From: Victivallaceae bacterium
GTDB taxonomy: Bacteria > Verrucomicrobiota > Lentisphaeria > Victivallales > Victivallaceae
Direction of reading: 5' to 3'
DNA length: 64,000 bases
NCBI GenBank assembly: GCA_045644425.1
Contig: JAZRGW010000023.1
Span: 71,592 to 135,591, forward strand
Positions within the stretch are counted from its first letter, which is position 1. Each line of letters starts with the position of its first letter. The notes under the pieces were generated by a model, which was given only the letters and a program-made list of their open reading frames with translations, had not been told where the DNA came from and did not search any database. A program made the position numbers and the translations under genes. Below, piece by piece: positions 719 to 32,098 of the stretch.

Positions 719-935
719 AATCTTTCCCCCTCATTCGTCTGATTCTTACAACTGCATCTCCCTGATAATAAAATAATCCTAATAAACCAAAAATGCAAGT
801 AATTTTCTTGCAACTTTTAAAATTTCTGTAGATTTTCAATAATTTACATAAAAAAACATCCTTCAGTGCATTAAATCAACATATTTTTTAATTAACTATT
901 GCTTTTTTTTAACTTTTGCTGTATACTTATATTCG

Positions 936-953
936 AACGATTAATTAAACGTT
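936..953. promoter_or_regulatory. Near-palindrome AACGATTAATTAAACGTT, candidate LacI-type operator
   Basis: An 18-mer with 16/18 dyad symmetry and AACG...CGTT half-site ends. It lies about 20 nt upstream of the LacI start at the head of the operon. Confidence 0.3.
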
Positions 954-973
954 TTATGCGGGGATTGACGGAA

Positions 974-1984
974 ATGACAAATTATCCAACCTTGAAAGAT
1001 GTCAGTGCGGAAGCGGGAGTTTCCATGGCGTTGGCATCGGTGGTTCTGAACGGCAAAAAAAGCCGTATCAAAGCCTCACCGGAAACCCGGCAGAAAATTA
1101 TTGCCGCCGCTGAAAAATTCGGCTATGAACCCAACCGCAACGCCAGAGCATTGCGGATGAGCCGCAGTTTTCTCATCGGAGTCATCACCTATGATATAAG
1201 CAGTTCATTCATTCCGAAAATACTCACCGGCATTGAACAGGGATTCATGCACACCAATTACAGTGTACTGCCGATAAGTTACCGCAATGATGAGGAATTT
1301 GCCGAGGCTCTGGAAACTCTACGCAAAAGAAAAATCGACGGTCTGATCATCATTTCCACCCATTTTTCCGGTTTCCCGGAAGAGTTATCCATGTGGAACC
1401 GGATCGCCAAAGTCTTTATCGGCTGCAATCCGCTTCTCGATTGTACCAGCAGTGTACGGGCCGATGGTACTGCTGTCGGCAAAGCTGCCGCAGAAGCATT
1501 CCTCAAACGGGGATGCAAAAAGTTCATTTATCTTACTCACTCAAATATTAAAGATTTCTGCGGAAATTGTGCCGGGTGGAAAGAAACTTTGAAAAGTGCC
1601 GGTATTCAGGAAAAAGATATGATCATCGCAAATGCCACGATCGACCTGGAAGACAGTTATAAAACCATCAAAAATATTCTGCTGAAAAATCCGGATGCGG
1701 ATTGCGTATTTGCTGACAGCGACATCATGGCAGCGGCTGTTTTGAAAGCCGCACAGGAACTGAATAGAAAAGTTCCAGATGATCTGCAGGTGATCGGCGT
1801 GGATGATTCCATTATCTGCCAGATAACCACTCCACCGCTGACCTCAATCTGGCAGCCGAAAATCCAGCAGGGCGAAGCTGCCGCAAAACTCATGCTCAAT
1901 CTGCTCAATGAAAACAAAACTGAAGCACTGGTTTTGCCGGTGCATATCAATACAAGAGAAAGTATCAAACCTTTGGAGGAATAA
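974..1984 (+). CDS. LacI-family transcriptional regulator
   Basis: N-terminal HTH TLKDVSAEAGVSMALASVVLNGK followed by a periplasmic-binding-protein-like core. I prefer ATG 974 over the track's TTG 899, because the first 25 codons are an AT-rich, leader-like sequence. Confidence 0.9.
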   Translation: MTNYPTLKDVSAEAGVSMALASVVLNGKKSRIKASPETRQKIIAAAEKFGYEPNRNARALRMSRSFLIGVITYDISSSFIPKILTGIEQGFMHTNYSVLPISYRNDEEFAEALETLRKRKIDGLIIISTHFSGFPEELSMWNRIAKVFIGCNPLLDCTSSVRADGTAVGKAAAEAFLKRGCKKFIYLTHSNIKDFCGNCAGWKETLKSAGIQEKDMIIANATIDLEDSYKTIKNILLKNPDADCVFADSDIMAAAVLKAAQELNRKVPDDLQVIGVDDSIICQITTPPLTSIWQPKIQQGEAAAKLMLNLLNENKTEALVLPVHINTRESIKPLEE

Positions 1985-1989: not shown

Positions 1990-4434
1990 ATGATGCAGCA
2001 AATCTATCTTGACGGCAATGACTGGGAAGCAGATTACTTCCTTTCTGAAAAAGAATATCATCAGTGGAAAGGATGGCACCGGACTATCAAAAATATGATC
2101 CGCAACTGTGCCCAGAGTGCCGGATTTGTCCGCGGCGATGCGGCTCCCGGTGCTTTGACCGGTACGGTTCCGGGGTGTGACCGTTCATTCATGCTTGAAA
2201 ACGGCGAATGCAAAGACCCTTATTTTGCAAGAAATCTGGAACATACGGAATTTTCTGAAAAATATTCATGGGCATTCCGCAAACGTTTCACCGTTCCGAA
2301 AGAGTGGGAAGGTAAACGTATTGAATTGGAATTCAAAGGTCTGGACTACTCCTGCTGGGTTTTCATCAACTGCCAATGGCTCGGACCGCATAAAGGTATG
2401 TTTATCCCCGAATCCTACGACATTACCCGCGAAATCAAATTCGGTGAAGAAAATATTGTAGCAGTGGTCTTCGATCCGGCTCCGAAGGGAAGTCCCAACC
2501 ATCTGGACGATGAACCGACCGATTTTGCAAAACTGCACCGCACCCAGATCGGTTTCGGCTGGGATTGGTCACGGGGCATCGTGCCGACCGGTATCACCGA
2601 CAGCGTGATCCTTACCGCTTACGACCAGGCTCTGATAACAGAACAGCAAGTGATTTTTGATGGTGAAAATGCTGTACTCAAAGTGGAAATTGAATCCAGA
2701 AGTGATTGTACGCTTCCCTTTTTCTGCAAACTTTCACCGGATAACTTTTCCGGTAAATCCACCTCTTTCGAGACTGCTATTGAACTGAAACACGGCGAAA
2801 ATAAATTTATTTTTGATCTGCCGCTTCCCAAAGATCTCAATCTCTGGTATCCGCTGGGTTATGGAGATCAGCCGCTTTACAATCTGGAAATGACCATCGA
2901 CGGTTCAACCAAAACCATCCGTACCGGATTCAAAACGATCACCATGTTCCGTAATCCCGGTTCTGCCCGTGGAGCGGCTGATCTCACCTATGTTTTCAAC
3001 GGCAAAAAGGTATTTGTACGGGGAGTAAACTATGTGCCGGCAGATTTGATAATGAGCAATGCCTCTGCTGCTGATTATGAGCATCTCGTGGCGACGGCGG
3101 CAATGGCGGGAATCAACTATTTCCGGATCTGGGGCGGCGGCGTTTTGGAAAAAGACGCTTTTTTCGATGCCTGCGACCGCTACGGTATCATGGTGCATCA
3201 GGAGTTTTTCCACGCCTGCAGTAAAGCTCCGAAAGATGAGGAATTTATTGCATTCAAGAAAAAAGAAGCAGTTGCCGTGATCAAAAAACTTTACAATCAC
3301 CCCTGCCTCACACTGATTTGCGGCGGTAATGAGATGCAATATTACGGTGAAATTCCGGATAGTCCGATCATCGAAAATTACCGGGAGATAGCGAAAGAGA
3401 TGGTGCCGGGAATACCTTTCCGCACCAGCAGTCCCGACCTTTCCCGTCCGGGGGAAAGACATCACGGTCCGTGGAACTATCTGGAGCACAAATTCTGGAA
3501 AACCCATTTCCGCAACTTTGCCAGTGAAGTCGGCTGCAACGCCATGCCGGAATTTTCCTCTCTTCAAAGATTCATCCCTGCTAAAGAGATCGAACTCATG
3601 TACGGCCCGTCACTGGAATATCACTTCTGCCATCTGGAAAATGAGTTTTACAGCCTGAAAAAACCGCTGAAAGTCTTTGAATACAACGGCATGAAAGAGT
3701 TCTGCGATGCTTCCATGTTTGCCCAGGCAGATGCGACACAGTGCATTTACGAGCATTACCGCCGTCTTTACCCGGAAGCATCCGGAGTTATTTTCTGGCA
3801 GTACAACGAACCGTGGCCGACCTGTTCATTCAATCTGATCGACTACTACGGCGTACCGAAAAACGCCATTTACACTATGAAACGTGCCAATGCAAAAAAT
3901 CTGCTTTCTCTGGAAGATGATTCCTGGTGTTGTGCCGATGGCAGACTGCAGGGTAAACTCTATCTGACCAGCGATGAGGGATTTACCGGTAAAGCCGCTG
4001 TAAAAGCTATAGATTGTGCCACCGGCAAAGAGATATTTGCAAAGGAGTTTGAGGGAACTTTTGCAGAAAACACCACGCTCCTTGCGGAAATCAATGAAGT
4101 TCTGCCAGCAGGTATCACGGCGGTATTTTTCTACCTCAATGGCGTTTGCACCAATGAGCGTCTCTACGGCGTACCGGATTTCAAAAAGGCTTTCGCTCTG
4201 CCTGAAACAGAGCTGAAAGCTGTTAAAGAAGGTAATTCCATCACTGTAACCAACAGCGGAAAGAGTGTGGCAGTCAATGTAAAACTCGTTTTCCCCGGTC
4301 TGCCGGATAAATCGGTCATTTTCAATGACAACTACATTTCTATCGCTCCGGGCGAGAGCCGTACAGTCTCGTTTACCGGTAACTGCGGAACTTCTGAAAT
4401 CCAAATTTCCGCATGGAATTGCAAAAATCAATAA
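1990..4434 (+). CDS. Glycoside hydrolase family 2, beta-mannosidase/exo-glucosaminidase-like
   Basis: 814 aa. GH2 sugar-binding N-terminus, an acid/base-like ICGGNEMQ and a nucleophile-like FASEVGCNAMPEF, as in GH2 beta-mannosidases. A GGAGGA RBS overlaps the LacI stop. Confidence 0.8.
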   Translation: MMQQIYLDGNDWEADYFLSEKEYHQWKGWHRTIKNMIRNCAQSAGFVRGDAAPGALTGTVPGCDRSFMLENGECKDPYFARNLEHTEFSEKYSWAFRKRFTVPKEWEGKRIELEFKGLDYSCWVFINCQWLGPHKGMFIPESYDITREIKFGEENIVAVVFDPAPKGSPNHLDDEPTDFAKLHRTQIGFGWDWSRGIVPTGITDSVILTAYDQALITEQQVIFDGENAVLKVEIESRSDCTLPFFCKLSPDNFSGKSTSFETAIELKHGENKFIFDLPLPKDLNLWYPLGYGDQPLYNLEMTIDGSTKTIRTGFKTITMFRNPGSARGAADLTYVFNGKKVFVRGVNYVPADLIMSNASAADYEHLVATAAMAGINYFRIWGGGVLEKDAFFDACDRYGIMVHQEFFHACSKAPKDEEFIAFKKKEAVAVIKKLYNHPCLTLICGGNEMQYYGEIPDSPIIENYREIAKEMVPGIPFRTSSPDLSRPGERHHGPWNYLEHKFWKTHFRNFASEVGCNAMPEFSSLQRFIPAKEIELMYGPSLEYHFCHLENEFYSLKKPLKVFEYNGMKEFCDASMFAQADATQCIYEHYRRLYPEASGVIFWQYNEPWPTCSFNLIDYYGVPKNAIYTMKRANAKNLLSLEDDSWCCADGRLQGKLYLTSDEGFTGKAAVKAIDCATGKEIFAKEFEGTFAENTTLLAEINEVLPAGITAVFFYLNGVCTNERLYGVPDFKKAFALPETELKAVKEGNSITVTNSGKSVAVNVKLVFPGLPDKSVIFNDNYISIAPGESRTVSFTGNCGTSEIQISAWNCKNQ

Positions 4435-4470: not shown

Positions 4471-7400
4471 ATGCTTAAGAAGTTGTTATTAAAGCAGTGC
4501 GTGTACGCACTGCTGCCGCTGACAGCGGCAGCAGCTCCGGTATTCAACAGCTCATTTGAGAAACTTGAGCCGTGGGTAAGTTACGCCCAGAAACAAAGCA
4601 AAGTCACTTTGCACAAAATCGTAACTGACAACGGCAATCCGTGTCTGGAAGCGACCGGAGACCCGTCGATCAAAGCCAATGCCTACCTCTGCCTCGGTAC
4701 GACGCTCAAAGATATCAAACCGGGAAAGACCTACAAAGTATCTTTCCGTTATCAGGCAAAAGTTGCTCCCGACCGTAAAAAATCCCTGAAAGTCAAAGTT
4801 GAGCAATTCGATGCGAAAAATAAACAGGTCGGCAGACATAACGCCCATTACTTCTTTGACAAAGAGGGTTGGAGCGAGATGGTTTTCGCTTTCAAGAGCG
4901 TGCCGGAAGCAGTGAATTCCTATTTGTATCTGGAAACCGCCAATCTCACATCCGCGGATAAAGTCCGTTATGACGATCTCAAAGTCGAAGAGTGCGAACC
5001 ATCAAACCGCGGTCTGGTGATCAACGGCAGTTTTGAACTGGGACTTTTCCCGTGGTTCAGCCATCAGCAGTCTGGCGGTTGGAGACAGATCCACCGTTTG
5101 AGTCCTGACACACCTTTCGGTAAGCACTGTCTGGAAATCATCGGCGATCCGGAAAATACCAGCAACCGTCTCTACATTCTCAATCAGGAAATGAAAAATC
5201 TGGAAGTCGGTACTCCCTACCGCCTTTCTCTGCAATTCCGTTCCAGTGTCAAAGAGGAACCCGGTCCTGCAAAAACCGCTTTTATCCGCGTTCAGCAGCT
5301 CGGCCCCAAAGGGGAATGGATCCTCGGCAATGAAGTGCGTTTCCCGCTCAACAGCGACCTCTGGACCTATCGTGAATTGACCTTTATTCCCGATGCCCGT
5401 ACTGCAACTACCGCGATTTACATCAATACCGGCAACTTCAAAAGCACCGACAGATTTTATATTGATGAAGTAACCGTACACAAAGCAGTCAGCCCCGGCA
5501 AACCTTTCGATGCTTCAAAACCGGCAAAAACTGCCGCCGTCAAGGAGATCAAAAACAAGCGTGGTGTGGCTAAACTCACTGCCGGAAACGTGCTTGCTTC
5601 TTTGAGTATCGACGGTAAAGAGATCGTGCCTGCCGCAGAAAAATCCAGTGTCATCTTCGTTCACAACAACGAAACCGAAGAGATCCTCGACGGTAAAGAA
5701 ACACCTTCCAAACTTTATCCATTCAAAGCGAAAGCGGAATATCTCTGGGATAAAGACGAATTCAAAGAGGTGATCACCTTTACCGCCACAAAAGATGCGG
5801 TCGGACCGTTTAAAATCGGTGTGCGTCACGGATTGGCACAGAAAAAGAATCAGTGGCATACACAGGTTTTCGGACTTTCCCCGGTGCGTTACATCCCCGC
5901 AGACAAAAGCACGGTTTTCACCTGGGGTATCGATCCCAACGATCTCAATCTCACCCAGCTCGACCTCTATCAGGGAGTGATCATGCCGCTGCAGGTGATG
6001 GAAGGCGAAAACTCCTACCTTTCCATTTCCAGCCACAGTTACGACGACAGTATCACTTTCCAACCCAATACTCCTGCCGGTTACAATGCCGTCATGGAAC
6101 GCAACCCGCTGCGGGTGAAAAAAGGTGAAAAATTCCGCATTGAAGTCAACTTCAACTATTTTGACCGGGAAAAATTTGTTCTCCGTGACGTCTGGCGGGA
6201 TCAGGTTTTACGGGTCTACTCCAATAATCCGATGCTGAAGCCCTATCTGCCGGTCAAAGATCCCGGTCCGAAAGTCACTGTTCCCGGTCCGCTGGGGTCG
6301 GTTACCGGTCTTTTCAAGCACCGTAAAGACCGTCTTTATAAACACAGTACGATCTGGGAAGGCTGGCACGATGAAGTTCATGAAGAATTCCCGACCGAAG
6401 GATCATGGTGGAATGGCTCAAATGAATGGCGGTTCAAATACACCGCAGAAGGATTCAAAAAACATATCGAAGAGCTGAAAAAAAGAGACATCTACACCAT
6501 CGCTTATATCCGGACTTTCTGCAACCTCGACCTCGCCGGAAAAACCTACCCTGCCGAATGGGTACGCAAAACCCCCGGCGGCGGAACCCAGCTCTATGGC
6601 GGCGGTTACCGTAAACTGCTGCCGCCTCACGTTGCAAAAGATACCGGTATCAAAGAGGTTCCGTGGGGTATGTTTGCCACATTCCAGCCCGGATGTCTGG
6701 AATTTCTGCACAAGCGTTTCTTCAAAGTGATCGAATATTACAACCCCTGGGGTATCGGCTGGGATTGTGCCGGATTTGATCAGGAAGACTTCCTCGCCGT
6801 GGCGAGTGTCACCCGCAAAATTCAGGAAAAGGGTTACAAAACCAAAGTTGTCGGCAACGAGTGTTCCGGTCCGATCACCGCATATCTTGATTGTACGATC
6901 ATTGAAAACGGATTCTTCGGCGGCAAAACTCCCTATGACTTTGAAGTTACCCGTGCCTTGAATATACCGATCGTCACTCTGGAAAGATGGCAGCTTGCCG
7001 TTGAATATCTCGATTATCACTTTGACAATAAACGCACCTGGTGCCGGCCTTTCGGTAAAGTGTGGAGCAAAAGCTATGTCGATTACAGAGTGAAAAAAGA
7101 TCCTTCATTGAAAAACAACCGGAAAAAACTTGCTCACGATCTCCATGTGACATGGTTCTACAAAGATCATTCTCTGGGTTCATCATCATTTGCTCCTGAA
7201 GAAGCTGAACCGCTCTTGAAATCTTTTATCAAGTTCACCAGTGAGATCAATGCCATTATCCGTATGGATAAAGCATTTGCCCTGCGTTTTCCCAACGGCA
7301 GGGAATCCGACGGTCCGCTGACCGCCTGTGCGTGGGCTGACAGCAAAACCAATCAATTCCGTCTTGCCGGATTCAATGAAGCTCATGAAACGAAACATTT

Positions 7401-7596
7401 CAAGCTCACTCTGGATAAAGCCGCATTTGAAAAAATGGGATGGAAAATCGAAAATATTCAGAAACACAAAGCCATTCTTGCCGATCCCGACAGCGAAAAA
7501 GAGATCACTCTCAAACAGAGCATCGTCAACGGCAATCTGGTTCTGGAGTGCGACCTGCCTCCATACGGTTTCCTGATGATTTTTGCAGATAAATAA
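4471..7596 (+). CDS. Secreted ~1040-aa protein, paralog A: signal peptide + two CBM4/9/22-like jelly-roll modules + conserved unassigned C-terminal domain
   Basis: Signal peptide ALLPLTAAAAP. Two modules start N(S/G)SFE...W and end Y(D/I)D(L/E)(K/V)V. The C-terminal blocks are WEGWHD..HEEFP..GSWW, LYGGGY, IGWDC, GNECSGP and ENGFFGGKTPYDFE. Paralogous to 8430-11528 and 11827-14958. Confidence 0.85.
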   Translation: MLKKLLLKQCVYALLPLTAAAAPVFNSSFEKLEPWVSYAQKQSKVTLHKIVTDNGNPCLEATGDPSIKANAYLCLGTTLKDIKPGKTYKVSFRYQAKVAPDRKKSLKVKVEQFDAKNKQVGRHNAHYFFDKEGWSEMVFAFKSVPEAVNSYLYLETANLTSADKVRYDDLKVEECEPSNRGLVINGSFELGLFPWFSHQQSGGWRQIHRLSPDTPFGKHCLEIIGDPENTSNRLYILNQEMKNLEVGTPYRLSLQFRSSVKEEPGPAKTAFIRVQQLGPKGEWILGNEVRFPLNSDLWTYRELTFIPDARTATTAIYINTGNFKSTDRFYIDEVTVHKAVSPGKPFDASKPAKTAAVKEIKNKRGVAKLTAGNVLASLSIDGKEIVPAAEKSSVIFVHNNETEEILDGKETPSKLYPFKAKAEYLWDKDEFKEVITFTATKDAVGPFKIGVRHGLAQKKNQWHTQVFGLSPVRYIPADKSTVFTWGIDPNDLNLTQLDLYQGVIMPLQVMEGENSYLSISSHSYDDSITFQPNTPAGYNAVMERNPLRVKKGEKFRIEVNFNYFDREKFVLRDVWRDQVLRVYSNNPMLKPYLPVKDPGPKVTVPGPLGSVTGLFKHRKDRLYKHSTIWEGWHDEVHEEFPTEGSWWNGSNEWRFKYTAEGFKKHIEELKKRDIYTIAYIRTFCNLDLAGKTYPAEWVRKTPGGGTQLYGGGYRKLLPPHVAKDTGIKEVPWGMFATFQPGCLEFLHKRFFKVIEYYNPWGIGWDCAGFDQEDFLAVASVTRKIQEKGYKTKVVGNECSGPITAYLDCTIIENGFFGGKTPYDFEVTRALNIPIVTLERWQLAVEYLDYHFDNKRTWCRPFGKVWSKSYVDYRVKKDPSLKNNRKKLAHDLHVTWFYKDHSLGSSSFAPEEAEPLLKSFIKFTSEINAIIRMDKAFALRFPNGRESDGPLTACAWADSKTNQFRLAGFNEAHETKHFKLTLDKAAFEKMGWKIENIQKHKAILADPDSEKEITLKQSIVNGNLVLECDLPPYGFLMIFADK

Positions 7597-7623
7597 CCCT
7601 TAACAACAGGAAAGGAATAGAAA

Positions 7624-8385
7624 ATGAAAAAGTGTTCCCTTAAAATGCAGTTCACCCTTATCGAATTGCTCGTTGTGATCGCGATCATCGCCATCCTCGC
7701 CGCCATTCTGCTCCCTGCTCTCAATTCTGCAAGGGAAAGAGGCAGAGCTGCAAGCTGTATCAATAACTTGAAACAGATCGGACTTGCGGTGGATTCGTAT
7801 GCAAATGATTGGGATGAATGTTATCATGTTAATGGACATGCAAATATTGATTCCGAGGCGAAATATGAATGGGCAAGAGTATTCGTCAAGCTCGGTTATC
7901 AGCCGGATGGTTTCGCGATTGTCCGTTGTCCGTCGACTACACTCTCCCCGACCGGGGCATCAGGGATCAGCACTTATGGAGTAAACGTGCGTTACCATGC
8001 CGGAATGAATCGCAACAGCACCAGCAGAGGTAGCTGGGACGACACGAATGACGCGAAGATTTACAAAGGTTTTGCAAACCGGAAAGATCTGACCCGTCCA
8101 TCTGAATATCCGACCCATGTCGATTGCGTCGGCAGTAATAACAGCTGTGAAGCAAAATATCAGGGTTATGCCTATTATCAAGTAAAAAATGTTGACGGTT
8201 ACGGAGCCGGTCTTCCCTATTGCGTTCACTCCAACAAGAGCCATGCTGTTTTTGCTGACGGTCACGCCGATGGAATCCAGAGAGAAAACTGGGCTAAAAT
8301 TTATGCCTACGGCTGTATTGACCAAAACTTTGCAGTCTACAATTACAGTAATGGAAGTTTGAGCGGTTACGTTACTCAGCAGTAA
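7624..8385 (+). CDS. Prepilin-type N-terminal cleavage/methylation protein, DUF1559-like pseudopilin (H-x9-DG)
   Basis: Leader [54 protein letters not shown]-terminal [12 protein letters not shown]. Confidence 0.9.
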
Positions 8386-8429
8386 ATCATCTTTTCGTTG
8401 AAAACAATCACTTAATCAAAGGCTGAAAT

Positions 8430-11400
8430 ATGTTTAATAAGACCCTTTTTGTGCTCGCAGCGGCGATTTCCGCATCACTTCTGCACGCTGAAAATCTGAT
8501 CAAAAACGGAGACTTTTCCTCCGGAAAAATCGCTCCGTGGCTCACTCCTCAAGCCCGGAATCTGCATATCATAAAAGACGGTAAAATTGTTGTTTCCGGT
8601 GATCCCGGCAATAAATACAATAATTTTATCACCATGGTACAGTATCTGCCCTCTCTGGAAAAAGGTAAAAGATATCTGCTCTCTGCCGAGGCTCTGCCGC
8701 AAGTAAAGAATGTCGGCAAAAAATGGGCAAAAATCGTTATCCGTCAGGCGGATAAAAAGAATGTGACCATCAACTACACCGGTAAAAATATCGATTTGGG
8801 AAGTTCCGGACTTCAGAAATTGAATACCGTTTTCACCCCCGCCCCAAATGCGGCATCATTCCAAGTATATATCCAGAGTTCCGGATTGGAAAAAAGCGAT
8901 CTGATCACCATCGACAATATCACATTGGATATTGCTCCGGAATTGAAAGCCGATCAGGGTAATTTCGTGCAGAACGGCAGCTTTGAACATCACGATCTTT
9001 CGCCGTGGAGAAGTAATTTTTTCAAGCAGAACTTTTTCAAACTTTCCGGCGATACCGCATTCGGCAAACAGTGTCTGACCGTTACCGGAGATAAAAAATT
9101 CCGCTACAACAACTTCATCACCATGATCCAGGATCTGCCGGTACTCGATCCGGATAAAGAGTATGTGCTTTCTGCAAGGATCCGTGCCGGTCTGAAAAAT
9201 ATCAAAGGCAAAAGCGTGGAAGTTTCCATCCGTCAATCCACTGCTGCCGGTCAGACCATCAGTTACAAAGGTTTTCAGGCAAATCTGTCGGATGACAGCT
9301 GGAAATATCACGAAAAAATGTTTCAGCCCTCCAAGCTCGCCGGTAAATTTGAACTCTATATCATCGTCAAAGCTCTGGATAAGGATGATCTCGCAGCTAT
9401 TGATGAAATAAAATTGACCGTCAAAGGCGGTGAAGGTGCTGCTTTTGACCCGAAAGCAGCAGTCAAAGTGCCGGTAAAAAAACTTCAGCAGGATAATATG
9501 ACCGCTGAAATCAATACCGCTACCGGACTTCTGCATAAACTTTCCGCCGGAAATCTGCTCATCCAGCCCGGAGCCAAAGCTTCCACCGTTGTTGCCGTCA
9601 GCAATAACGGCAAATCATTTGAGCTTGACGGTAAAAATACTCCCGCAGGTGGTTTTCAGGCAAAGGCAGAGTACGATTTCAAAGACGGAATGTTCCGGGA
9701 GATCATCACGGTCAAAGCATTGCAGGATTTTTCCGACCCTGTCCGCATCGCCGTCCGTCACGGTTTTGATCAGAAATCATGGCAGAAACATATCGGGGCT
9801 TTGCGTCCCTTGAGAATCCGCGACATCAACGAAGCAACGATTTTCAGTTACAGCGAAAATACCAATGACCTCAATCCGGGGATCCTTGAGCAGTATCAGC
9901 ATACCGCTTATCCGCTGATCATTCTGGAAAGTCCGGATCACTATCTGATCGCCGGATCACGTTCTCTGGATGATTTTGTCACCCTTTCCCCCAACTACCC
10001 GGCAGGATACATCCCCTCGCTCCAGCGGAATCCGGTCAAAGTGAAAAAAGGTGATGTTTTCCGTTTTGAAAGCAACTGGAAACTTTTCAGCCGCAAAGAG
10101 GTCATGCTCCGGGATGTGTGGAGATTCTATCAGGATAATCTGCAGACTTCCGATCCGGTTCTCGGCAAGTTCTTCCCGCCTGCATTCCGGGAAAGACGCC
10201 ACTTCTACCCCGGTATTTTCGGCAGTCACACCTACTTTATGAAAGAGCGGGAAGATCGTCTGCCCGATGGTGCCAATGTCTGGTTTTACAGCTGGCACGA
10301 CAATATCCATGAACGTTATCCGGTTTCCGGTTCATGGTGGAGCAACGGCAACGCATGGAAAGAAAAAATCAACGCCGATGAACTCAAAGACTATATGAAA
10401 CGGCTGCAGAGCGAAAGAAAATTCAACCTCATCTTCTATCTGCGGCAGCTCGCCAATCTGCGTGAACGTGACCGGGGTGCTTTCCCCGATAACTGGTATA
10501 AACGTACCCCCGGCGGGGCACTCCATCTTTACGGCGGCGGATACACCGTCAAACTGCCGCAGAATGTGGCAAAAGATGTCGGTTACGACTCCATTCCGTG
10601 GGGTCAGCATAACTTCGCCAACCCCGATTTCCGGAAATTCTATCTCGATGAAATCTTTACCGCCATCAACTTCTATCAGCCCCGTGCCATCGGCTGGGAT
10701 ATGGGCAGCGATCTCCATGAATTTTCCGTAATCGCCGAAACCTATACCCGGCTCCGTAACGCAGGCGGCAAAGTCAAAGCCGTTGCCAATGAAAGTGCCG
10801 GTCCCACTCAGGCGTTTGCCGATATGGTGCTTCTGGAAAACGGTCTGCTCGGCGGCAAAAGTGCCTACGACTTTGAAATCGCCCGCACCTATACGACCAG
10901 TGTGGTCTGTCTGGAAAGATGGAATATTTTCCGCCTTGCTTTCGACAATCACACCACCGGCAGAAAAGTGTGGCTCAATAACAACGGTCTCAAAGAAAAT
11001 AAACGCTACTTTGATTATATCGTCAAAAAGCATCCGGAATTGAAAGAACAGTCAAGTCGTAACGAAACAGCCCGGCTCTGCCAGCTGCGGGCAAGCATCT
11101 ACGATCTGGCTCTCGGTGCCAGCCCCGGATATATGGAAGAAGCGAAACCGGTTCCGGAAACCCTTTTCAAAGTCGCCGGTGAAGTCAACGGCTTATTTGC
11201 AGTAAATAAAAGTTTTGCCGTCACTTTCCCCAACCGCAGCAATATTGATGGTCACAAGATCGTCAGTGCGTGGAACAATGATAAATCTTTCCGGCTGGTC
11301 GCTTTCAATGATCAGGTGCAGAATGCTGATTTCACCATCCTGCTCGACAAAAAATATTTTGCCGGTGAATCGTGGAGTCTGAAAGATATCAAAAATGGTA

Positions 11401-11528
11401 TCTGCAAAGCTGTAACCCCTGAAAATGAAAAAAATATGAGTGTTGATTTCAGCGAAAATGATTCTCACATCATCCTGAAATTCAAACTCTCCGCCTTTGA
11501 AGCATTGATGCTCAGTGCCGATAAGTGA
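8430..11528 (+). CDS. Secreted ~1030-aa protein, paralog B (divergent) of the CBM-CBM-unassigned-domain family
   Basis: Signal peptide and the same architecture and conserved blocks as paralog A: WFYSWHD..HERYP..GSWW, LYGGGY, IGWDM, ANESAGP, ENGLLGGKSAYDFE. It ends in SADK, like its paralogs (FADK). Confidence 0.85.
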   Translation: MFNKTLFVLAAAISASLLHAENLIKNGDFSSGKIAPWLTPQARNLHIIKDGKIVVSGDPGNKYNNFITMVQYLPSLEKGKRYLLSAEALPQVKNVGKKWAKIVIRQADKKNVTINYTGKNIDLGSSGLQKLNTVFTPAPNAASFQVYIQSSGLEKSDLITIDNITLDIAPELKADQGNFVQNGSFEHHDLSPWRSNFFKQNFFKLSGDTAFGKQCLTVTGDKKFRYNNFITMIQDLPVLDPDKEYVLSARIRAGLKNIKGKSVEVSIRQSTAAGQTISYKGFQANLSDDSWKYHEKMFQPSKLAGKFELYIIVKALDKDDLAAIDEIKLTVKGGEGAAFDPKAAVKVPVKKLQQDNMTAEINTATGLLHKLSAGNLLIQPGAKASTVVAVSNNGKSFELDGKNTPAGGFQAKAEYDFKDGMFREIITVKALQDFSDPVRIAVRHGFDQKSWQKHIGALRPLRIRDINEATIFSYSENTNDLNPGILEQYQHTAYPLIILESPDHYLIAGSRSLDDFVTLSPNYPAGYIPSLQRNPVKVKKGDVFRFESNWKLFSRKEVMLRDVWRFYQDNLQTSDPVLGKFFPPAFRERRHFYPGIFGSHTYFMKEREDRLPDGANVWFYSWHDNIHERYPVSGSWWSNGNAWKEKINADELKDYMKRLQSERKFNLIFYLRQLANLRERDRGAFPDNWYKRTPGGALHLYGGGYTVKLPQNVAKDVGYDSIPWGQHNFANPDFRKFYLDEIFTAINFYQPRAIGWDMGSDLHEFSVIAETYTRLRNAGGKVKAVANESAGPTQAFADMVLLENGLLGGKSAYDFEIARTYTTSVVCLERWNIFRLAFDNHTTGRKVWLNNNGLKENKRYFDYIVKKHPELKEQSSRNETARLCQLRASIYDLALGASPGYMEEAKPVPETLFKVAGEVNGLFAVNKSFAVTFPNRSNIDGHKIVSAWNNDKSFRLVAFNDQVQNADFTILLDKKYFAGESWSLKDIKNGICKAVTPENEKNMSVDFSENDSHIILKFKLSAFEALMLSADK

Positions 11529-11552
11529 TTTCATTCGAGGAAAAGATCGGCA

Positions 11553-11720
11553 ATGGAAAATTTTTACTTTGTTCAATTCACCGATATCCACATCGGTACG
11601 ATCGTCATACCGGAAATCGTTGAATTGAATCTGCAATGGGCGTTGAATGAAGTCAACAGCTTTGATCCGGCTCCCGGGAATCATCCTCTGCGGTCCGCGA
11701 AATGCCCCCAGAGGAACTGA
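11553..11720 (+). pseudogene. Relic of a metallophosphoesterase N-terminus (55 codons)
   Basis: The ATG 11553 ORF reads MENFYFVQFTDIHIGTIVIPEIVELNLQWALNEVNSFDPAPGNHPLRSAKCPQRN*. FVQFTDIHIG matches calcineurin-like phosphoesterase motif I (D-x-H), but the ORF stops before motif II (GD). It sits in the otherwise unexplained 298-nt gap between paralogs B and C. Confidence 0.4.
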
Positions 11721-11826
11721 TCCGGTAGTTTCCGGAGCATTGCAGGTACATCAGACTTTCCGGATACCTTTTGATTGATAAAAATCTGATTTATAATCTT
11801 CCATCGTAACAAAGAAAGGGAAAACA

Positions 11827-14800
11827 ATGAAAAAATTACTCGCTTTCATGCTGGCGGCTGGAACTGCCGCGGCAGCCGGTGCCGCCGATAATTTCGGTAT
11901 CAACGGCACTTTTGAAAAACTTGCCCCGTGGCGGTCTGCACAGCAGAGCGACGGCAAGGTCGTACTGCACAAAATCGTGCAGGATAACGGAAATCCCTGT
12001 CTGGAAGTTTGCGGTGATCCCCTGAACCGCCGCAATGCCAATATCATCATCGGTTCACCGATCAAAAATCTGGAAGCTGACAATACTTACTCCGTTTCCT
12101 TCCGTTACAAGCCTCAGGTCAAACCCGGAAAGAAAAAAGGATTGAAAGTCCGTGTTCAGCAGCACGATGCCAAAGGCAAAACCGTCGGTTACAACAACAC
12201 CAGTTACTTCTATGACAAAAATGAATGGCAGGATTTTATTTTCTCCTTCAAAAGCCATCCGGCTGCAGTCAAAAGTTATCTCTACATCGAAACCATTAAT
12301 CTGGAAACCACCGATAGAGTCTGGTACGATGATATCAAAATCGCCCAGACCGATCCGGCTGACCGGGGCGTGGTGATCAACGGCGGATTTGAACTGGGCG
12401 TTTTCCCGTGGATGAGCCATCAGCAGGGCGGCGGATGGAGACAGATCCACCGTATCAGTCCGGATACTCCTTTCGGTAAAAAATGTCTGGAAATCACCGG
12501 TGATACGGAAAATACCAGCAACCGGCTGATCATCCTCAATCAGAAACTTGCCGGTCTCAAAATCGGTACTCCTTACAAACTTTCCCTGCAGTTCCGTTCC
12601 AGTGTCAAAAGCGAACCCGGCCCGACCAAAGTCGTCTACGCCCGGCTCCAGCAGCTCGGTCCGCAGGGTTCATACATCATCGGTAATGAACTCCACTTTG
12701 CCCTCAACAGCGATCTCTGGACTTACCGGGAACTCACCTTTATCCCCGATAAACGTGCTTCCCAGTTCCTTATCTACATCTGCAGCGGAAATCTGAAATC
12801 CACCGATAAATTCTATATCGATGAAGTGACTATCAGTGAAGCCATCGCTCCGGGAAAACCCTTTGATGCTTCCAAAAATGCCAAAGCATTTTCCGCACAA
12901 GAGTTGAAAGATGCCCGCGGTCTGGCAAAAATCAATACCGCTGACAATACCCTCGCCGCACTGACTATCGACGGCAAAACCATCATCCCCGCCGCCGAAA
13001 ATGCCACGATGATCTTCGCCCAGCAGAATAATTATGAGGAGTACCTCGATGCCAAAGGTACTGCCGGGAAAAAACTGCCCTTCAAGGCTTCAGCAGAATA
13101 CAAATGGGTCAATGGCGAATTCCGTCAGCTCGTGACCATCACCGCCACTGCCGATGCCAGAGGACCATTTAAAATCGGTGTCCGTCACGGTCTTATCCAG
13201 AAAGATTGGAATAAACAGCTTTTCGGTCTTTTCCCGATGCGTGTTCTGCCTGCCGGTGAAGAAACTGTTTTCACTTTCAACGGTGATACCAACGACCTCA
13301 ATCTTACCCAGATGGATCTTTATCAGGGCGTGATCATGCCGCTGCAGGTCATGGAAAGCGAAAAAGCCTATCTCGCTGTTTCCAGCCACAACTACGATGA
13401 TACCATCACTTTCCGCCCCAATATCCCCAATGGTTACACTGCGGCATTTGAACGCAACCCACTGCGGGTGAAAAAGGGTGATAGCTTCCGTTTTGAAGTC
13501 AACTTCAAACTCTTTGACCGCAGCAAATTCATGCTCCGCGATGTGTGGCGTGACCAGATCTTTGCCCTTTATTCCAACCGTCCGGAACTCAAACCCTATT
13601 TCCCGGTCAAAGATCCCGGTCCCCGTGCCGTCGTTTCCGGTCCGATGGGTTCAGTTACCGGTATGATTCCCTCCCGGATCAACCGCCTTTATCCCAACAG
13701 TGCCATCTGGGAAGGCTGGCACGATACCCCCAATGAAGAATTCCCCACTTCCGGTTCCTGGTGGAGCGGAAGCAACGGCTGGGAAAAACCCTTTACCGCC
13801 GGAGCATTCAGAACACATGTAAAAAATTGTCAGGATAGAGGCTTATCCATCATCGCTTACATGCGTACTTTCTGCAATCTGGACTACGCAGGAAAACGTT
13901 TCCCCGCCAACTGGACCAGAAAAACTGCCGGCGGCGGTCTCCAGCTCTACGGCGGCGGCTACCGTGTGCAGCTGCCCAAACATGTGGAAAAAGATACCGG
14001 ACTCAAAGAAGTGGTCTGGGGTATGTTTGATACCTTCCAGCCCGGATGTCTGGATTTCCTTGTCAAACGCTTCACTAAAGTCGTCGATTACTACAAACCG
14101 TGGGCGATCGGCTGGGATTGTGCCGGTTTCGGTCCGGAAGATTTCCTGATGGTCGCCGCCATGACCCAGAAACTCCGTACCAACGGCTACAAAACCAAAG
14201 TCGTCGGCAACGAGTGTACCGGTCCCATCAATGCTTATCTTGACTGGACAATGATCGAAAACGGTTTCTTCGGAGGAAAAACTCCTTACGACTATGAAGC
14301 GATCCGTGCTTTGCCGCTGCCGGTCGCATGTCTGGAACGTTTCAACCTTTCCCGTGACATGGTCAATTTCTACCTCTACAACAAACGCACCTGGTGCCGC
14401 CCCTACGGCAAAGAGTGGAGCTGCCGCTATCTGGACTACCTCACTGCAAAACAGCCGGAATTGAAGCAGAAAGCCAACCAGAAAAAACTGGAACACCACA
14501 TGCAGCTGACCTGGTACTACAAAGACCTCTCTCTCGGTGCCCCCGGCGGTTATATGGAAGAGTGCAAACCCATTCCCGCTTCCATGGTCAAAATGTGCAG
14601 CGAAGCCAACGGTATTATCCGTATGGATAAAAGTTTCGCCATCCGTTTTCCCAATGGCAAAGAAGATGATGGCCCTCTGACTGCCTGTGCATGGGCTGAT
14701 AACAAGACCAAAAAGTTCCGTCTCGCAGGTTATAACGAGGCAAAAACCACGCAGAAATTCCGTCTGACTCTCGACAAAGCCGCCTTTGCCGACGTCCAGT

Positions 14801-14958
14801 GGAGCATGGAAGATATCGCCCGCAATCTGAAAGCTTTCATCGCCGATGTGGAAGGTGAAAAAGCGATTCAGGTCAAAACCGAAATGGTCAACGGCAATCT
14901 GGTAATTTCCTGCGATCTGCCTGCCTATACTGCACTGCTGCTTTTTGCAGACAAGTAA
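11827..14958 (+). CDS. Secreted ~1040-aa protein, paralog C (close to paralog A)
   Basis: Collinear with 4471-7596 along the full length, at roughly two-thirds identity by eye. Same motif blocks (WEGWHD, LYGGGY, IGWDC, GNECTGP, ENGFFGGKTPYDYE). Confidence 0.85.
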   Translation: MKKLLAFMLAAGTAAAAGAADNFGINGTFEKLAPWRSAQQSDGKVVLHKIVQDNGNPCLEVCGDPLNRRNANIIIGSPIKNLEADNTYSVSFRYKPQVKPGKKKGLKVRVQQHDAKGKTVGYNNTSYFYDKNEWQDFIFSFKSHPAAVKSYLYIETINLETTDRVWYDDIKIAQTDPADRGVVINGGFELGVFPWMSHQQGGGWRQIHRISPDTPFGKKCLEITGDTENTSNRLIILNQKLAGLKIGTPYKLSLQFRSSVKSEPGPTKVVYARLQQLGPQGSYIIGNELHFALNSDLWTYRELTFIPDKRASQFLIYICSGNLKSTDKFYIDEVTISEAIAPGKPFDASKNAKAFSAQELKDARGLAKINTADNTLAALTIDGKTIIPAAENATMIFAQQNNYEEYLDAKGTAGKKLPFKASAEYKWVNGEFRQLVTITATADARGPFKIGVRHGLIQKDWNKQLFGLFPMRVLPAGEETVFTFNGDTNDLNLTQMDLYQGVIMPLQVMESEKAYLAVSSHNYDDTITFRPNIPNGYTAAFERNPLRVKKGDSFRFEVNFKLFDRSKFMLRDVWRDQIFALYSNRPELKPYFPVKDPGPRAVVSGPMGSVTGMIPSRINRLYPNSAIWEGWHDTPNEEFPTSGSWWSGSNGWEKPFTAGAFRTHVKNCQDRGLSIIAYMRTFCNLDYAGKRFPANWTRKTAGGGLQLYGGGYRVQLPKHVEKDTGLKEVVWGMFDTFQPGCLDFLVKRFTKVVDYYKPWAIGWDCAGFGPEDFLMVAAMTQKLRTNGYKTKVVGNECTGPINAYLDWTMIENGFFGGKTPYDYEAIRALPLPVACLERFNLSRDMVNFYLYNKRTWCRPYGKEWSCRYLDYLTAKQPELKQKANQKKLEHHMQLTWYYKDLSLGAPGGYMEECKPIPASMVKMCSEANGIIRMDKSFAIRFPNGKEDDGPLTACAWADNKTKKFRLAGYNEAKTTQKFRLTLDKAAFADVQWSMEDIARNLKAFIADVEGEKAIQVKTEMVNGNLVISCDLPAYTALLLFADK

Positions 14959-14977: not shown

Positions 14978-15018
14978 ATCAGCCGTTTTTACGCAATTGG
15001 AGAAACGGCTGATTTTTT
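14978..15018 (+). terminator. Rho-independent terminator closing the 1-15 kb operon
   Basis: Stem ATCAGCCGTTT / AAACGGCTGAT followed by a T6 run, 20 nt after the paralog C stop. Confidence 0.8.
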
Positions 15019-15133
15019 ATCCATGAATAGACGGTGACGGACAAAATATCACACTTTTTTCAAAAGTTATACTTGTTATATAACAATGGATAAATTATAT
15101 TAATGAGATGTATAATTTTGACATGGAGACGTT

Positions 15134-23574: not shown

Positions 23575-23599
23575 CGGCAGAATATTGTAAAAAGTAAAT

Positions 23600-23707
23600 T
23601 CAGTTTTTTTTCATTGGTTCCTCCTTTTTAAATCCGCCACGTCCGGCACATGCGGAAAATCCGAGCATGATACACACCACCGAAATATTTATAATATTTA
23701 TTCTCAT
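23600..23707 (-). CDS. 35-codon ORF encoding only a lipoprotein-type signal peptide; probable detached 5' end of the 21667-23574 gene
   Basis: AAGGAG lies 8 nt upstream of ATG 23707. The product is MRINIINISVVCIMLGFSAC-AGRGGFKKEEPMKKN*. The ORF ends in ATG-A8-C-TGA. With A7 it would be in frame with MSIDSEDQ... Confidence 0.5.
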   Translation of the reverse strand: MRINIINISVVCIMLGFSACAGRGGFKKEEPMKKN

Positions 23708-23868
23708 AAACAAAACTCCTTCAGCATGATCAAATGTTATCCGCAATGTTCCATTACAGCACGGCGAAGAAACAAAAAAGCAAATTCAAACTTATTTTCG
23801 CAGATGCAAGCGGACACGAAAACAATATTGATGATATGATCACCAATTTTTTCATCCGCGTTCTCCTT

Positions 23869-27063: not shown

Positions 27064-27244
27064 AACTGCAGCTCCTAAAAAAGATTTCTGTAAAAGTTTG
27101 TGCTTATGCAAAAACTGTATAAAAAAGTTCATTTTGTAAACTCCCTGTTAAAATATGCAACTATATCATCAATTTCCGGCATGGCAAGCACTTCCCGGTA
27201 ATCATAATTGCGTTTGAAATTTGATGATCTTCAAACACCCCATA

Positions 27245-31302: not shown

Positions 31303-32079
<777 letters not shown>

Positions 32080-32098
32080 TTTCAATTTCTCCTTTTGG

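Follow-up and report, generated by a model that had tools for sequence, protein, structure and literature searches.

A triplicated family of secreted, carbohydrate-binding-module proteins from Victivallales as a probable new family of retaining-type glycosidases

A 64,000-nucleotide stretch of a Victivallaceae genome (hereafter the window) contains three related genes for large secreted proteins, raising the question of whether these constitute a new glycan-active family, as the original prediction proposed, and, if so, how and on what they might act. We consider it probable that the three paralogs, A, B and C, represent a new family of retaining-type glycosidases within a known superfamily, located in mannoside-utilisation loci, while the assignment of a particular substrate carries far less certainty.

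The paralogs and their operon

Paralogs A (4471..7596, 1041 aa), B (8430..11528, 1032 aa) and C (11827..14958, 1043 aa; the copy used for modelling) are full-length and co-directional on the + strand, with the predicted coordinates confirmed exactly. Each of A, B and C comprises a predicted Sec-type signal peptide, two CBM_4_9 modules and a β-sandwich, (β/α)8 barrel, β-sandwich arrangement. A MAFFT alignment gave 62% identity between A and C and 34% between A and B, bearing out the earlier by-eye estimate that A and C are about two-thirds identical and B far more diverged; domain by domain, the values were 54–71% for A–C and 25–41% for A or C against B, which forms a diverged subtype (IGWD-MG, ANES). 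Where AC-type and B-type copies occur together, they probably have different preferences for linkage or substrate. All conserved blocks listed previously were found in each of the three copies, namely W..WHD, LYGGGY, IGWD(C/M), NE..GP, ENG..GGK..YD(F/Y)E and the (F/S)ADK C-terminus. Paralog B is also a cluster representative in the protein collection.

The predicted export and glycan-binding features held up as well. By a hydrophobicity heuristic, the N-termini of A, B, C and every full-length homolog resemble signal peptides, with K/R followed by a 10–18 residue hydrophobic stretch, and Pfam assigned CBM_4_9 (PF02018) twice to each of the three proteins, above the gathering score (E 1e-15 to 1e-19). 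The two modules of paralog C (residues ~25–156 and ~181–340; 11899..12846, + strand) were detected as two stretches with E 1.2e-19 and a score of 71.5 against a cutoff of 25.9, and this region had no relative among PDB sequences. The modules should anchor each enzyme on a polysaccharide.

The genetic setting agrees with the original description, with a LacI-family regulator and a GH2 gene upstream and a terminator downstream. The LacI gene (899..1984, +; Pfam LacI HTH, Peripla_BP_1, Peripla_BP_3) ends 5 bp before the gene for a β-mannosidase-like GH2 enzyme (1990..4434, +; Pfam Glyco_hydro_2_N2, Ig_mannosidase, Ig_GlcNase), whose top PDB matches are β-mannosidases (5n6u, E 3e-73; 2vjx, 9e-51) and which is predicted to be cytoplasmic, having no signal peptide (N-terminus MMQQIYLDGNDWE). 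Between A and B lies a gene omitted from the earlier description (7624..8385, +), encoding a pseudopilin-like protein with a prepilin N-methylation motif and DUF1559 (Pfam N_methyl, SBP_bac_10/DUF1559) and weak NCBIfam matches to GspG/PilA across its N-terminus. Gaps between the operon's genes measure 5–44 bp, the exception being the 298-bp B–C spacer, which holds a 55-codon ORF outside the enzyme family (11553..11720, +). Its translation starts MENFYFVQFTDIHIGT, which we take to resemble metallophosphoesterase motif I; the related loci yielded no homolog, and the ORF is possibly a gene relic. Downstream of C, an intrinsic terminator (14978..15019, +) consists of a hairpin with a 12-bp stem (14978–15013; ΔG −19.9 kcal/mol, z −6.3), matched in stability by 0 of 200 shuffles, and a U tract; it was probably overlooked by the consensus scan because its loop exceeds the scan's 8-nt limit. 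A perfect palindrome upstream of the LacI gene, TGCAAG-N7-CTTGCA (794..812, no strand assigned), is a candidate operator. It occurs as a single exact copy in the window and does not fit the generic LacI/CcpA consensus; its count at ≤2 mismatches lacks statistical support, since 85 of 100 shuffles equalled or exceeded it. The window's own operon contains no transporter, isomerase or DUF4434 gene.

Fold and distant relatives of the catalytic unit

The ~700-residue catalytic region had no match in Pfam, NCBIfam or PDB sequences, whether the query was a single sequence or a profile of 23 family members, in support of the proposed new secreted, CBM-bearing, triplicated family. Members are scarce, numbering 105 among 1.84 billion representatives at E ≤ 1e-3; a search of 5.8 billion proteins, covering 8000 word-sharing candidates, yielded at least 21 clusters at 90% identity, and all named members belong to Victivallales/Lentisphaeria.

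We modelled the catalytic unit of C with AlphaFold2 (pLDDT 88.9, pTM 0.87), obtaining a β / (β-α)x / β layout. The N-terminal β-sandwich (residues ~345–565; 12859..13521, +) is all-β, with pLDDT mostly 89–97 over model residues 1–220; the (β/α)8-type barrel (residues ~566–944; 13522..14658, +) was delineated from DSSP strand/helix order, Foldseek and conservation; and the C-terminal β-sandwich (residues ~945–1043; 14659..14955, +; model residues 600–699, pLDDT 92–98) ends in a last strand formed by FADK. The β-rich middle region and the ~450-aa C-terminal region of the original prediction are thus both present, but the model joins them in one three-domain catalytic unit rather than separating them; the barrel modelled alone reached a pLDDT of 76, below the whole-unit model. 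By DSSP, WHD follows strand 1 and the LYGGGY loop follows strand 2, while IGWD, VVGNE, IENG and LER form strands 4, 5, 6 and 7, respectively. The LYGGGY loop, among the most conserved motifs, was modelled with low confidence.

Foldseek comparison of the whole unit, as suggested originally, matched retaining α-glycosidase structures with probability 1.00, including GH36 (3mi6, 5.7e-15), GH129 (5opq, 1.7e-14), GH101 (5a59, 3.2e-14), GH31 (4ba0, 1.2e-13), GH66 (5axh, 1.2e-13) and GH97 (8wg1, 1.4e-12), while the barrel alone matched GH66 (1.4e-7) and GH31 (1e-6), then GH129, GH36 and GH13. Identity to these solved structures was only 8–14%, and global TM-scores were modest (0.3–0.48). On the basis of the model, the catalytic unit has the fold of the α-galactosidase/α-glucosidase superfamily (GH31, GH36, GH66, GH97, GH101, GH129; distantly GH114 and GH168), with none of the first six families clearly closest.

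A sequence bridge to these enzymes runs through 56 distant relatives (alignment A4, including P0037 of a Victivallales MAG), which share a WD...N...D...E(N/G)G core with the family and are likewise uncharacterised. Core family and distant relatives aligned across all three domains with an hhalign probability of 100 and E 7e-81, at ~19% identity (~10–24% in the core-segment alignment). Where the family has CBM_4_9, many distant relatives have F5/8 type C or DUF7402 modules, and the gene context at the one locus examined (L025) differs. Six of the 56 gave a weak Pfam GH31 match, and their profile reached GH31 YicI (3.6e-6, barrel strands 1–3), GHL15 (1.6e-5), GH168 (2.5e-5), GH66 (9sjf, 3.5e-5) and GH114 (1.5e-4); the widened profile reached GH31, GH168, GH66, GH114 and GH36 structures at E 4e-6 to 1e-3. 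The description of the C-terminal region as unassigned therefore stands at the family level and falls at the superfamily level, where fold and widened profile both place it; we found no confident match to a characterised family, only superfamily-level matches at ~10% identity.

Candidate catalytic residues and comparison with named families

Two acidic residues, an Asp at strand 4 and a Glu at strand 6, are invariant in 23 of 23 core sequences, as are some 70 other positions within the barrel and around it. Across a core alignment of 42 sequences, the Asp of IGWD never varies, and N795, D806 and the ENG Glu are ≥90% conserved. The original suggestion that the acidic residues of WHD, GWD, NE, ENG and YD.E are all catalytic is consequently upheld by superfamily-wide conservation for the GWD Asp and ENG Glu only, the NE Glu varying among distant relatives. 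HMM alignments pair the family Asp with the DGVF(I/M)D Asp, and the Glu with the DAxM(F/I)EH Glu, of GH168, GH114 and GHL15 structures, and additionally the Asp with that of GH36 KWDMN. In GH114, the matching pair has been verified as nucleophile and acid/base (Ega3 D189/E247; PMC12054363), and in GH27 and GH31, strand 4 ends with the nucleophile and strand 6 with the proton donor (PMC1249566); D764 and E811 occupy these strand ends in the model of C.

Strand positions, together with HMM alignments of weak significance (E 1e-5 to 1e-3), suggest that the invariant Asp and Glu are the catalytic pair of sugar-cutting enzymes. The predicted nucleophile, the IGWD Asp, is D765 in A (codon 6763–6765), D757 in B (10698–10700) and D764 in C (14116–14118), and the predicted acid/base, the ENG Glu, is E812 (6904–6906), E803 (10836–10838) and E811 (14257–14259), respectively, all on the + strand. 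The reaction would be a retaining double displacement on an axially linked (α-type) glycosidic bond, with the WHD Asp after strand 1 and the remaining invariant residues probably serving in substrate binding.

Each candidate family shares part of this arrangement. GH31 (E. coli YicI α-xylosidase, Agd31B, sulfoquinovosidases) and clan GH-D (GH27/GH36 α-galactosidases) have the same sandwich–barrel–sandwich order and an acidic residue ending strand 6, and IGWD(C/M) resembles the GH31/GH36 nucleophile motifs ending strand 4. However, the strand-6 residue is Glu in the family and Asp in GH31/clan GH-D, the Lys before the nucleophile is missing, W..WHD, LYGGGY, NE..GP and GGK..YD.E are invariant motifs of the family's own, and identity to these enzymes is ~9–10%; the window proteins matched neither the Pfam GH31 nor the Melibiase model at E ≤ 0.1. 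Unlike GH31, GH27 and GH36, of which we know of no member that cleaves mannosides, the family has a gene context pointing to mannosides. GH66 (dextranases and cycloisomaltooligosaccharide glucanotransferases) gave the best barrel-only matches (3wno, 1.4e-7; 8iu8, 3.8e-7) and has Asp as its nucleophile and Glu as its acid/base, the residue types predicted here; yet TMq was only 0.41–0.43 at 10% identity, Pfam GH66 had no match in the window proteins, and its α-1,6-glucan substrate contrasts with the β-mannoside and mannose enzymes of the family loci. GH101/GH129 (endo-α-N-acetylgalactosaminidase, α-GalNAc-ase, Zobellia 3,6-anhydro-D-galactosidase) resemble the family in multi-domain organisation (whole-unit Foldseek 1.7e-14 to 1e-13), but at 9–12% identity and TMq 0.31–0.45, with a lower rank for the barrel alone and no sequence-profile link found with the widened profile. 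Conversely, GH114/GH191/GH168/GHL15 (endo-α-1,4-galactosaminidases, endo-α-1,3-fucanase) gave the best sequence-profile matches across strands 3–6 (8ya6, 4.6e-5; 9jom, 8.3e-5), seen with the widened profile and not with the 23-sequence core profile, and their catalytic pair comprises the residues aligned with the family Asp and Glu; these enzymes are endo-acting on α-linked polymers and, unlike the family, are stand-alone barrels of ~350–420 residues that lack flanking β-sandwiches.

Related loci, alternative readings and a proposed pathway

We compiled a tblastn matrix of 24 related loci plus the window. In 18 loci the family gene has a DUF1559 pseudopilin gene as its neighbour, and in 13 a LacI homolog takes the position it has in the window; DUF4434 occurs in 8, a D-lyxose/D-mannose isomerase in 6 (L001, L002, L013, L014, L018, L023), and 5 of these 6 (L001, L002, L013, L014, L018) also have a class II aldolase. 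Twelve loci contain GH2 and three (L019, L020, L024) GH130, but none contains both.

This context, with its GH2 β-mannosidase and mannose isomerase, could also fit α-galactosidase-type debranching of plant galactomannan, in which α-1,6-galactose would be removed and GH2 or GH130 would finish the β-mannan fragments, instead of depolymerisation of fungal or microbial mannan. The hosts live in the rumen and colon, where they meet plant mannans, the top whole-unit fold match is a GH36 α-galactosidase, and the nucleophile motif aligns with KWDMN. We nevertheless regard this as unlikely: no endo-β-mannanase (GH5, GH26, GH113, GH134) was found in the conserved loci, the alternating GH130 is nearest to β-1,2-mannobiose and 1,2-β-oligomannan phosphorylases (E 2e-55) rather than β-1,4-specific ones, the family lacks the Lys of the GH27/GH36 K-x-D motif, and secretion, two CBMs and three paralogs suit attack on a polymer.

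Alternatively, the proteins could be active without being simple hydrolases, as transglycosylases or cyclising enzymes (compare GH66 cycloisomaltooligosaccharide glucanotransferases and GH31 transglucosylases) or as α-glycan lyases (compare GH31 α-glucan lyases), in which case a polymer would be remodelled or unusual oligosaccharides made. Glucanotransferases of GH66 head the barrel-only matches, the transglucosylase Agd31B is among the whole-unit matches, and transglycosylation is common in retaining enzymes of this superfamily; against this, the neighbours are catabolic (β-mannosidase or phosphorylase, isomerase, aldolase, LacI repressor), which fits depolymerisation for feeding and makes this reading distinctly unlikely, although no sequence feature separates these options.

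It is improbable, in turn, that the proteins are ordinary members of a family already described, in CAZy or in print, under a GH number too recent to appear in Pfam, NCBIfam and the PDB. CAZy does grow faster than Pfam, as illustrated by GH191, defined in 2025, but no similar PDB chain was found with a single protein (E ≤ 1) or the family profile (E ≤ 10), the family is not covered by any model in NCBIfam release 20.0 (June 2026), and the only annotations at NCBI are "carbohydrate binding domain-containing protein" and "hypothetical protein". Nothing relevant emerged from full-text searches covering Victivallales, new GH families and GH31/GH66-related founding members. A non-catalytic role, in which surface proteins with a degenerate glycosidase fold would bind glycan and capture it together with the pseudopilin, draws on the constant DUF1559 neighbour and the two CBMs per protein, but is highly improbable given the invariant pair at the catalytic strand ends, its Asp conserved in 42 of 42 superfamily sequences, and the additional invariant positions, which exceed the needs of a binding scaffold.

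Returning to a new family of retaining-type glycosidases, the gene neighbourhoods suggest a pathway in which these enzymes would make the first extracellular cut on a mannose-containing glycan and the fragments would be taken up. The cytoplasmic GH2 β-mannosidase-like enzyme, replaced in other genomes by a GH130 β-1,2-mannoside phosphorylase-like enzyme, would then complete the breakdown, and the isomerase and aldolase, where present, would send mannose to glycolysis, with the operon under the control of the LacI-family repressor. The fold predicts cleavage of axial (α) bonds, whereas the conserved partner enzymes act on β-mannosides, and the connection to mannose comes from gene association alone; most likely, the family would provide the outermost step in feeding on a mannose glycan.

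Three paralogs and their operon

Paralogs A (4471–7596, 1041 aa), B (8430–11528, 1032 aa) and C (11827–14958, 1043 aa) are co-directional open reading frames that align end to end, with exactly the boundaries of the original prediction, and every motif block listed there was found in all three proteins. Full-length identity is 62% for the pair A and C and 34% for A and B; by domain, it ranges from 54 to 71% between A and C and from 25 to 41% between B and either of the others. The two CBM-like modules proposed from the sequence correspond to tandem Pfam CBM_4_9 domains (PF02018; CAZy CBM4/9/16/22-type) within the N-terminal ~340 residues of every paralog, scoring 56.9, 62.0 and 71.5 bits against a gathering cutoff of 25.9; Pfam recognized no other domain in A, B or C. 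The CBM region had no relative among PDB sequences, so no ligand can be deduced from these modules. By a heuristic assessment, the N-termini of the three paralogs and of all full-length homologs have the form of a Sec signal peptide. We also considered a 1030-aa ORF at 27245–30337, which has no Pfam match, as a fourth paralog and rejected it, as BLASTP was negative and the HMMs of three of our alignments (A3, A4 and A6) matched nothing in the window except A, B and C.

The genes lie between a GH2 gene and a terminator under a LacI regulator, as anticipated, and the layout includes a DUF1559/N-methyl pseudopilin-like gene that the earlier account had missed. The LacI gene (899–1984) is separated by 5 bp from the GH2 gene (1990–4434), which ends 36 bp before A; the pseudopilin-like gene (7624–8385) follows A after 27 bp and precedes B by 44 bp. 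Past C lies a strong terminator hairpin with a U tract (14978–15013; dG −19.9 kcal/mol, z −6.3). The spacer between B and C is unusually long (298 bp) and holds a 55-codon ORF (11553–11720) beginning MENFYFVQFTDIHIGT, a start that we take to resemble the first metal-binding motif of a calcineurin-like phosphoesterase; no homolog was found among the fetched loci, and the ORF may be a gene relic of a rearrangement. The perfect palindrome TGCAAG-N7-CTTGCA (794–812), some 90 bp before the LacI ORF, has no other exact copy in the window. It is a possible operator, or possibly the terminator of the upstream minus-strand gene; a terminator scan also marks it on that strand. The palindrome lacks statistical support, and the generic LacI/CcpA operator consensus had no match near the operon.

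Directly past the terminator, a gene with its own promoter-like sites (15134–17134) encodes a 666-aa membrane protein with Sulfatase and DUF3413 domains, presumably akin to phosphoethanolamine or phosphoglycerol transferases and probably unrelated to the operon. Elsewhere in the window, a second locus of the same logic occupies 21667–33757 on the minus strand, comprising a GH2 gene (32099–33757), a DUF1559 pseudopilin gene (31303–32115), a gene for a 1087-aa esterase-like protein (23869–27132) and three ORFs without a Pfam match, of 259 aa (30437–31216), 1030 aa (27245–30337, unrelated to A, B and C) and 635 aa (21667–23574), which may encode further undescribed glycan-active proteins. The stretch at 34000–38000 is low in GC (0.37–0.40 versus ~0.46 elsewhere) and may be foreign or mobile DNA; an ORF at 35260–37158 encodes a 632-aa protein with seven DUF4379 treble-clef zinc-finger repeats (E 2.6e-145).

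Predicted fold and catalytic residues, and relation to known glycosidases

As single sequences, the last ~700 residues of the paralogs gave no match in Pfam, NCBIfam (E ≤ 0.1–1) or PDB chain sequences, and a 23-sequence family profile likewise found no PDB chain for this region. These negatives bear out the original prediction that the C-terminal region belongs to none of the GH, PL or CE families its author knew, and a full-text literature search found no description of the family. An AlphaFold2 model of protein C residues 345–1043, computed on the family alignment (mean pLDDT 88.9, pTM 0.87), comprises an all-beta sandwich (model residues 1–220), a barrel of alternating strands and helices (~226–590) and a second beta-sandwich (600–699), with a LYGGGY loop that is highly conserved yet poorly modelled. 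In the model, the beta-rich middle region and the ~450-aa C-terminal domain of the earlier parsing form one catalytic unit.

A Foldseek search of the PDB returned 421 matches at E ≤ 1e-3, and the best 50 of the 421 were all three-domain alpha-glycosidases. They included GH36 alpha-galactosidase (3mi6, 5.7e-15), GH129 (5opq, 1.7e-14), GH101 (5a59, 3.2e-14), GH31 (4ba0, 1.2e-13), GH66 (5axh, 1.2e-13) and GH97 (8wg1, 1.4e-12), each with a probability of 1.00 but with identities of only 8–11% and TM scores of 0.3–0.45. A barrel-only model, less confident than the three-domain one (pLDDT 76) and used solely to rank folds, placed GH66 first (1.4e-7) and GH31 second (1e-6), followed by GH129, GH36 and GH13. 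The AlphaFold and Foldseek comparison that the original prediction had proposed as a check thus yields a modelled likeness at the level of the superfamily, at 8–11% identity, among whose families none stands out.

Among 1.84 billion representative proteins, an exhaustive search with a profile (E ≤ 1e-3) recovered only 105 relatives: 16 are full-length family members, and most of the others belong to a remoter group whose similarity covers the first beta-sandwich and strands 1–6 of the barrel. An alignment of 56 of these distant relatives (A4) proved homologous to the core family in each of the three domains (hhalign probability 100, E 7e-81), and a few of its members weakly match Pfam GH31, GHL6, GHL15 and Melibiase. 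Compared with sequences of known structure, the A4 profile found GH31 YicI (3.6e-6), a GHL15 protein (1.6e-5), a GH168 endo-1,3-fucanase (2.5e-5), a GH66 CITase (3.5e-5), GH114 (1.5e-4) and GH36 (0.018).

We also built a joint alignment of 42 core and distant sequences over a segment that begins shortly ahead of strand 3 and extends into the helices past strand 7. The Asp of IGWD is the one invariant residue of this segment, and N795, D806 and the Glu of ENG (protein C numbering) are conserved in at least 90% of the sequences. HMM alignments place the IGWD Asp on the Asp of DGVF(I/M)D and the ENG Glu on the Glu of DAxM(F/I)EH in GH168, GH114 and GHL15 structures, and the former also on the KWDMN Asp of GH36. 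In the model, IGWD forms the fourth barrel strand (416–420) and IENG the sixth (463–467). The corresponding residues of the GH114 enzyme Ega3, D189 and E247, are the experimentally verified nucleophile and acid/base (PMC12054363), and in GH27 and GH31 strand 4 ends with the nucleophile and strand 6 with the proton donor (PMC1249566). Taken together, the weak profile alignments, the strand positions and these precedents point to D765/E812 in A, D757/E803 in B and D764/E811 in C as the predicted nucleophile and acid/base pairs. Of the five motifs whose acidic residues had been proposed as catalytic, the alignments and strand positions thus favour two, the Asp of GWD and the Glu of ENG, and not the others. 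The WHD Asp follows strand 1 directly and aligns near HFD of YicI; substrate binding is a likelier role for it than catalysis. GH101 and GH129 have a 32-residue spacing between Asp and Glu, an analogy that had first pointed to E796 of the strand-5 NE motif as the acid/base. This candidate was rejected because its Glu varies among the distant relatives in the 42-sequence alignment; the Glu of strand 6, by contrast, is conserved there and aligned with the GH114/GH168 acid/base.

GH114, GH168 and GHL15 give the best sequence-profile matches, but they are single-domain barrels with DG(V/I)F(M/I)D and D.VM(I/F)EH motifs, whereas our proteins carry IGWD(C/M) and (I/L)ENG at the aligned positions and have two flanking beta-sandwich domains; Pfam GHL15 and GH114 left A, B and C unmatched. 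GH31 shares the order of beta-sandwich, (beta/alpha)8 barrel and beta-sandwich seen in the model of C, with Foldseek E-values of 1e-13 to 1e-11 when the whole unit is compared and of 1e-6 with the barrel alone, and the distant relatives and GH31 align chiefly over barrel strands 1–6. The GH31 catalytic-domain HMM (PF01055), however, matched none of A, B and C at E ≤ 0.1 and only 6 of the 56 distant relatives, weakly (best 6.9e-4). GH31 has an Asp nucleophile at the end of strand 4 and an Asp acid/base at the end of strand 6; at these places the family has an invariant Asp (IGWD) and an invariant Glu, both with a predicted catalytic role. Likeness to GH66 is confined to the fold and the widened profile (3.5e-5), as there was no Pfam match and the core-family profile retrieved no GH66 chain. 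For clan GH-D (GH36/GH27), Pfam Melibiase did not match A, B or C, and despite the alignment to KWDMN of 3mi6 the family has Gly at the Lys position of the K-x-D motif. GH101 and GH129 match at the fold level only, with no Pfam or PDB-sequence match by single sequence or profile.

At ~10% identity, with no HMM match and with signature motifs of its own, the family falls outside GH31, GH36 and GH66, yet its sequences and model suggest that it works like a retaining glycosidase of that kind. It shows the features that define, by sequence and fold, the alpha-galactosidase/alpha-glucosidase superfamily of Naumoff, whose members are retaining enzymes for axial glycosidic bonds: a (beta/alpha)8 barrel, a conserved Asp at the C-terminal end of strand 4, a putative proton donor at that of strand 6 and a better-conserved N-terminal half of the barrel (PMC1249566). 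Judged against Pfam, NCBIfam and the PDB, we regard it as a new family inside a known superfamily, the main residual risk being that the CAZy/dbCAN classification already covers it.

Distribution and gene neighbourhood

A word-indexed search of 5.8 billion proteins returned 21 clusters, and 18 loci came from a scan in which each of 185,579 species was represented by one genome; this set is biased to close relatives, since the scan used two narrow peptide patterns. All 18 lie in metagenome-assembled genomes labelled Lentisphaeria, Lentisphaerae, Victivallales or Victivallaceae and sampled from the sheep colon, the goat rumen, the human gut and the like. Word-indexed searches with the A4 profile and a further one, A8, returned close relatives of the first sequence only, with almost no names, and did not widen the taxonomic range. 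Exact copies of A and B are present in an NCBI contig of 154 kb, and source databases name family members only 'carbohydrate binding domain-containing protein' or 'hypothetical protein'. The gene order A, pseudopilin(s), B, C is kept in the nearest relatives (loci L006 and L007), and other loci have B plus C or one copy with a single CBM. The sequences fall into an AC-type (IGWDCAG with GNEC) and a B-type (IGWD-MG with ANES), whose co-occurrence in the same genomes suggests that they differ in specificity.

Neighbourhoods were compared by a tblastn matrix of 24 related loci and the window, supported by Pfam and NCBIfam annotation. In 18 loci the immediate neighbour of the family gene is a DUF1559 pseudopilin gene, at times present twice. 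This constant pairing suggests a functional link, for example in secretion, anchoring or glycan capture, for one protein of the very large DUF1559 expansion of PVC bacteria, which is otherwise unexplained. LacI is present in 13 loci and a GH2 beta-mannosidase-like gene in 12. GH130 occurs in 3 (L019, 13038–13946; L020, 13032–13940; L024, 10751–11665), where it takes the position of GH2 next to the family gene, and no locus has both. The GH2 of the window, which lacks a signal peptide, best matches beta-mannosidases (5n6u, E 3e-73); the GH130 proteins best match beta-1,2-mannobiose and 1,2-beta-oligomannan phosphorylases (E 2e-55). A D-lyxose/D-mannose isomerase gene is found in 6 loci, adjoined in five of them by one for a class II ketose-bisphosphate aldolase. 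This exchange of a beta-mannoside hydrolase for a beta-mannoside phosphorylase, along with the isomerase, points to mannose as the end of the pathway, so that the secreted, CBM-bearing enzyme would be the step that makes the imported fragments; annotation of the loci found no known endo-mannanase family.

In 8 loci, a DUF4434 gene absent from the window lies immediately downstream of the family gene (among them L001, 12756–13691, and L013, L014, L015, L017, L019 and L020). It encodes a protein of ~313 aa, probably a further enzyme of the same pathway, that matches 4h41 (E 4e-107), an uncharacterized structural-genomics entry labelled 'putative alpha-L-fucosidase'; searches for DUF4434 gave only this entry and one irrelevant paper.

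A proposed route of mannose-glycan harvest

In the scheme that we propose, the CBMs would anchor the exported family enzyme to its polysaccharide, where it would break an axial glycosidic linkage in a double-displacement reaction, the Asp serving as nucleophile and the Glu as acid/base. The resulting oligosaccharides would be imported into the cell, their beta-mannosidic bonds cut by GH2 or GH130 and the mannose isomerized to fructose, and a pathway intermediate would relieve LacI. The target predicted from the fold is an alpha-type bond, yet the partner enzymes act on beta-mannosides, so both linkages are probably present in the substrate. It could be a fungal or yeast mannan capped with beta-1,2 units, a galactomannan (by debranching) or a microbial exopolysaccharide that contains mannose.

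A more far-reaching reading, which we consider unlikely, is that this is the first glycanase of GH31/GH66-like retaining alpha-glycosidase fold to depolymerize a mannose-rich glycan and feed GH130 or GH2 in a PVC-specific, SusC/D-free mannan-utilization system that includes the always-adjacent DUF1559 pseudopilin. Its substrate would be, for example, the mannan of fungal or yeast cell walls, whose alpha-linked framework carries beta-1,2-mannoside caps, the released beta-mannoside oligosaccharides passing to GH130 beta-1,2-mannoside phosphorylases or GH2 beta-mannosidases. If true, part of the large DUF1559 expansion would thereby gain a function.

D764 and E811 of protein C offer precise targets for mutagenesis. 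The interest is moderate for specialists, and would be higher if the substrate is mannan and the pseudopilin partnership is functional. To our knowledge, the physiological source of substrates for beta-1,2-mannoside phosphorylases is poorly defined outside Bacteroides, and the family is a candidate natural source. If this is confirmed, the alpha-galactosidase/alpha-glucosidase superfamily would gain a new GH family, probably one of new substrate specificity. The glycan metabolism of the Victivallales, which inhabit gut and rumen, is, as far as we know, almost unstudied; here the mini-operon of LacI, pseudopilin, new enzyme and GH2 or GH130 provides a functional handle on DUF1559 proteins and a compact, testable model of polysaccharide harvest in diderm PVC bacteria without SusC/D.
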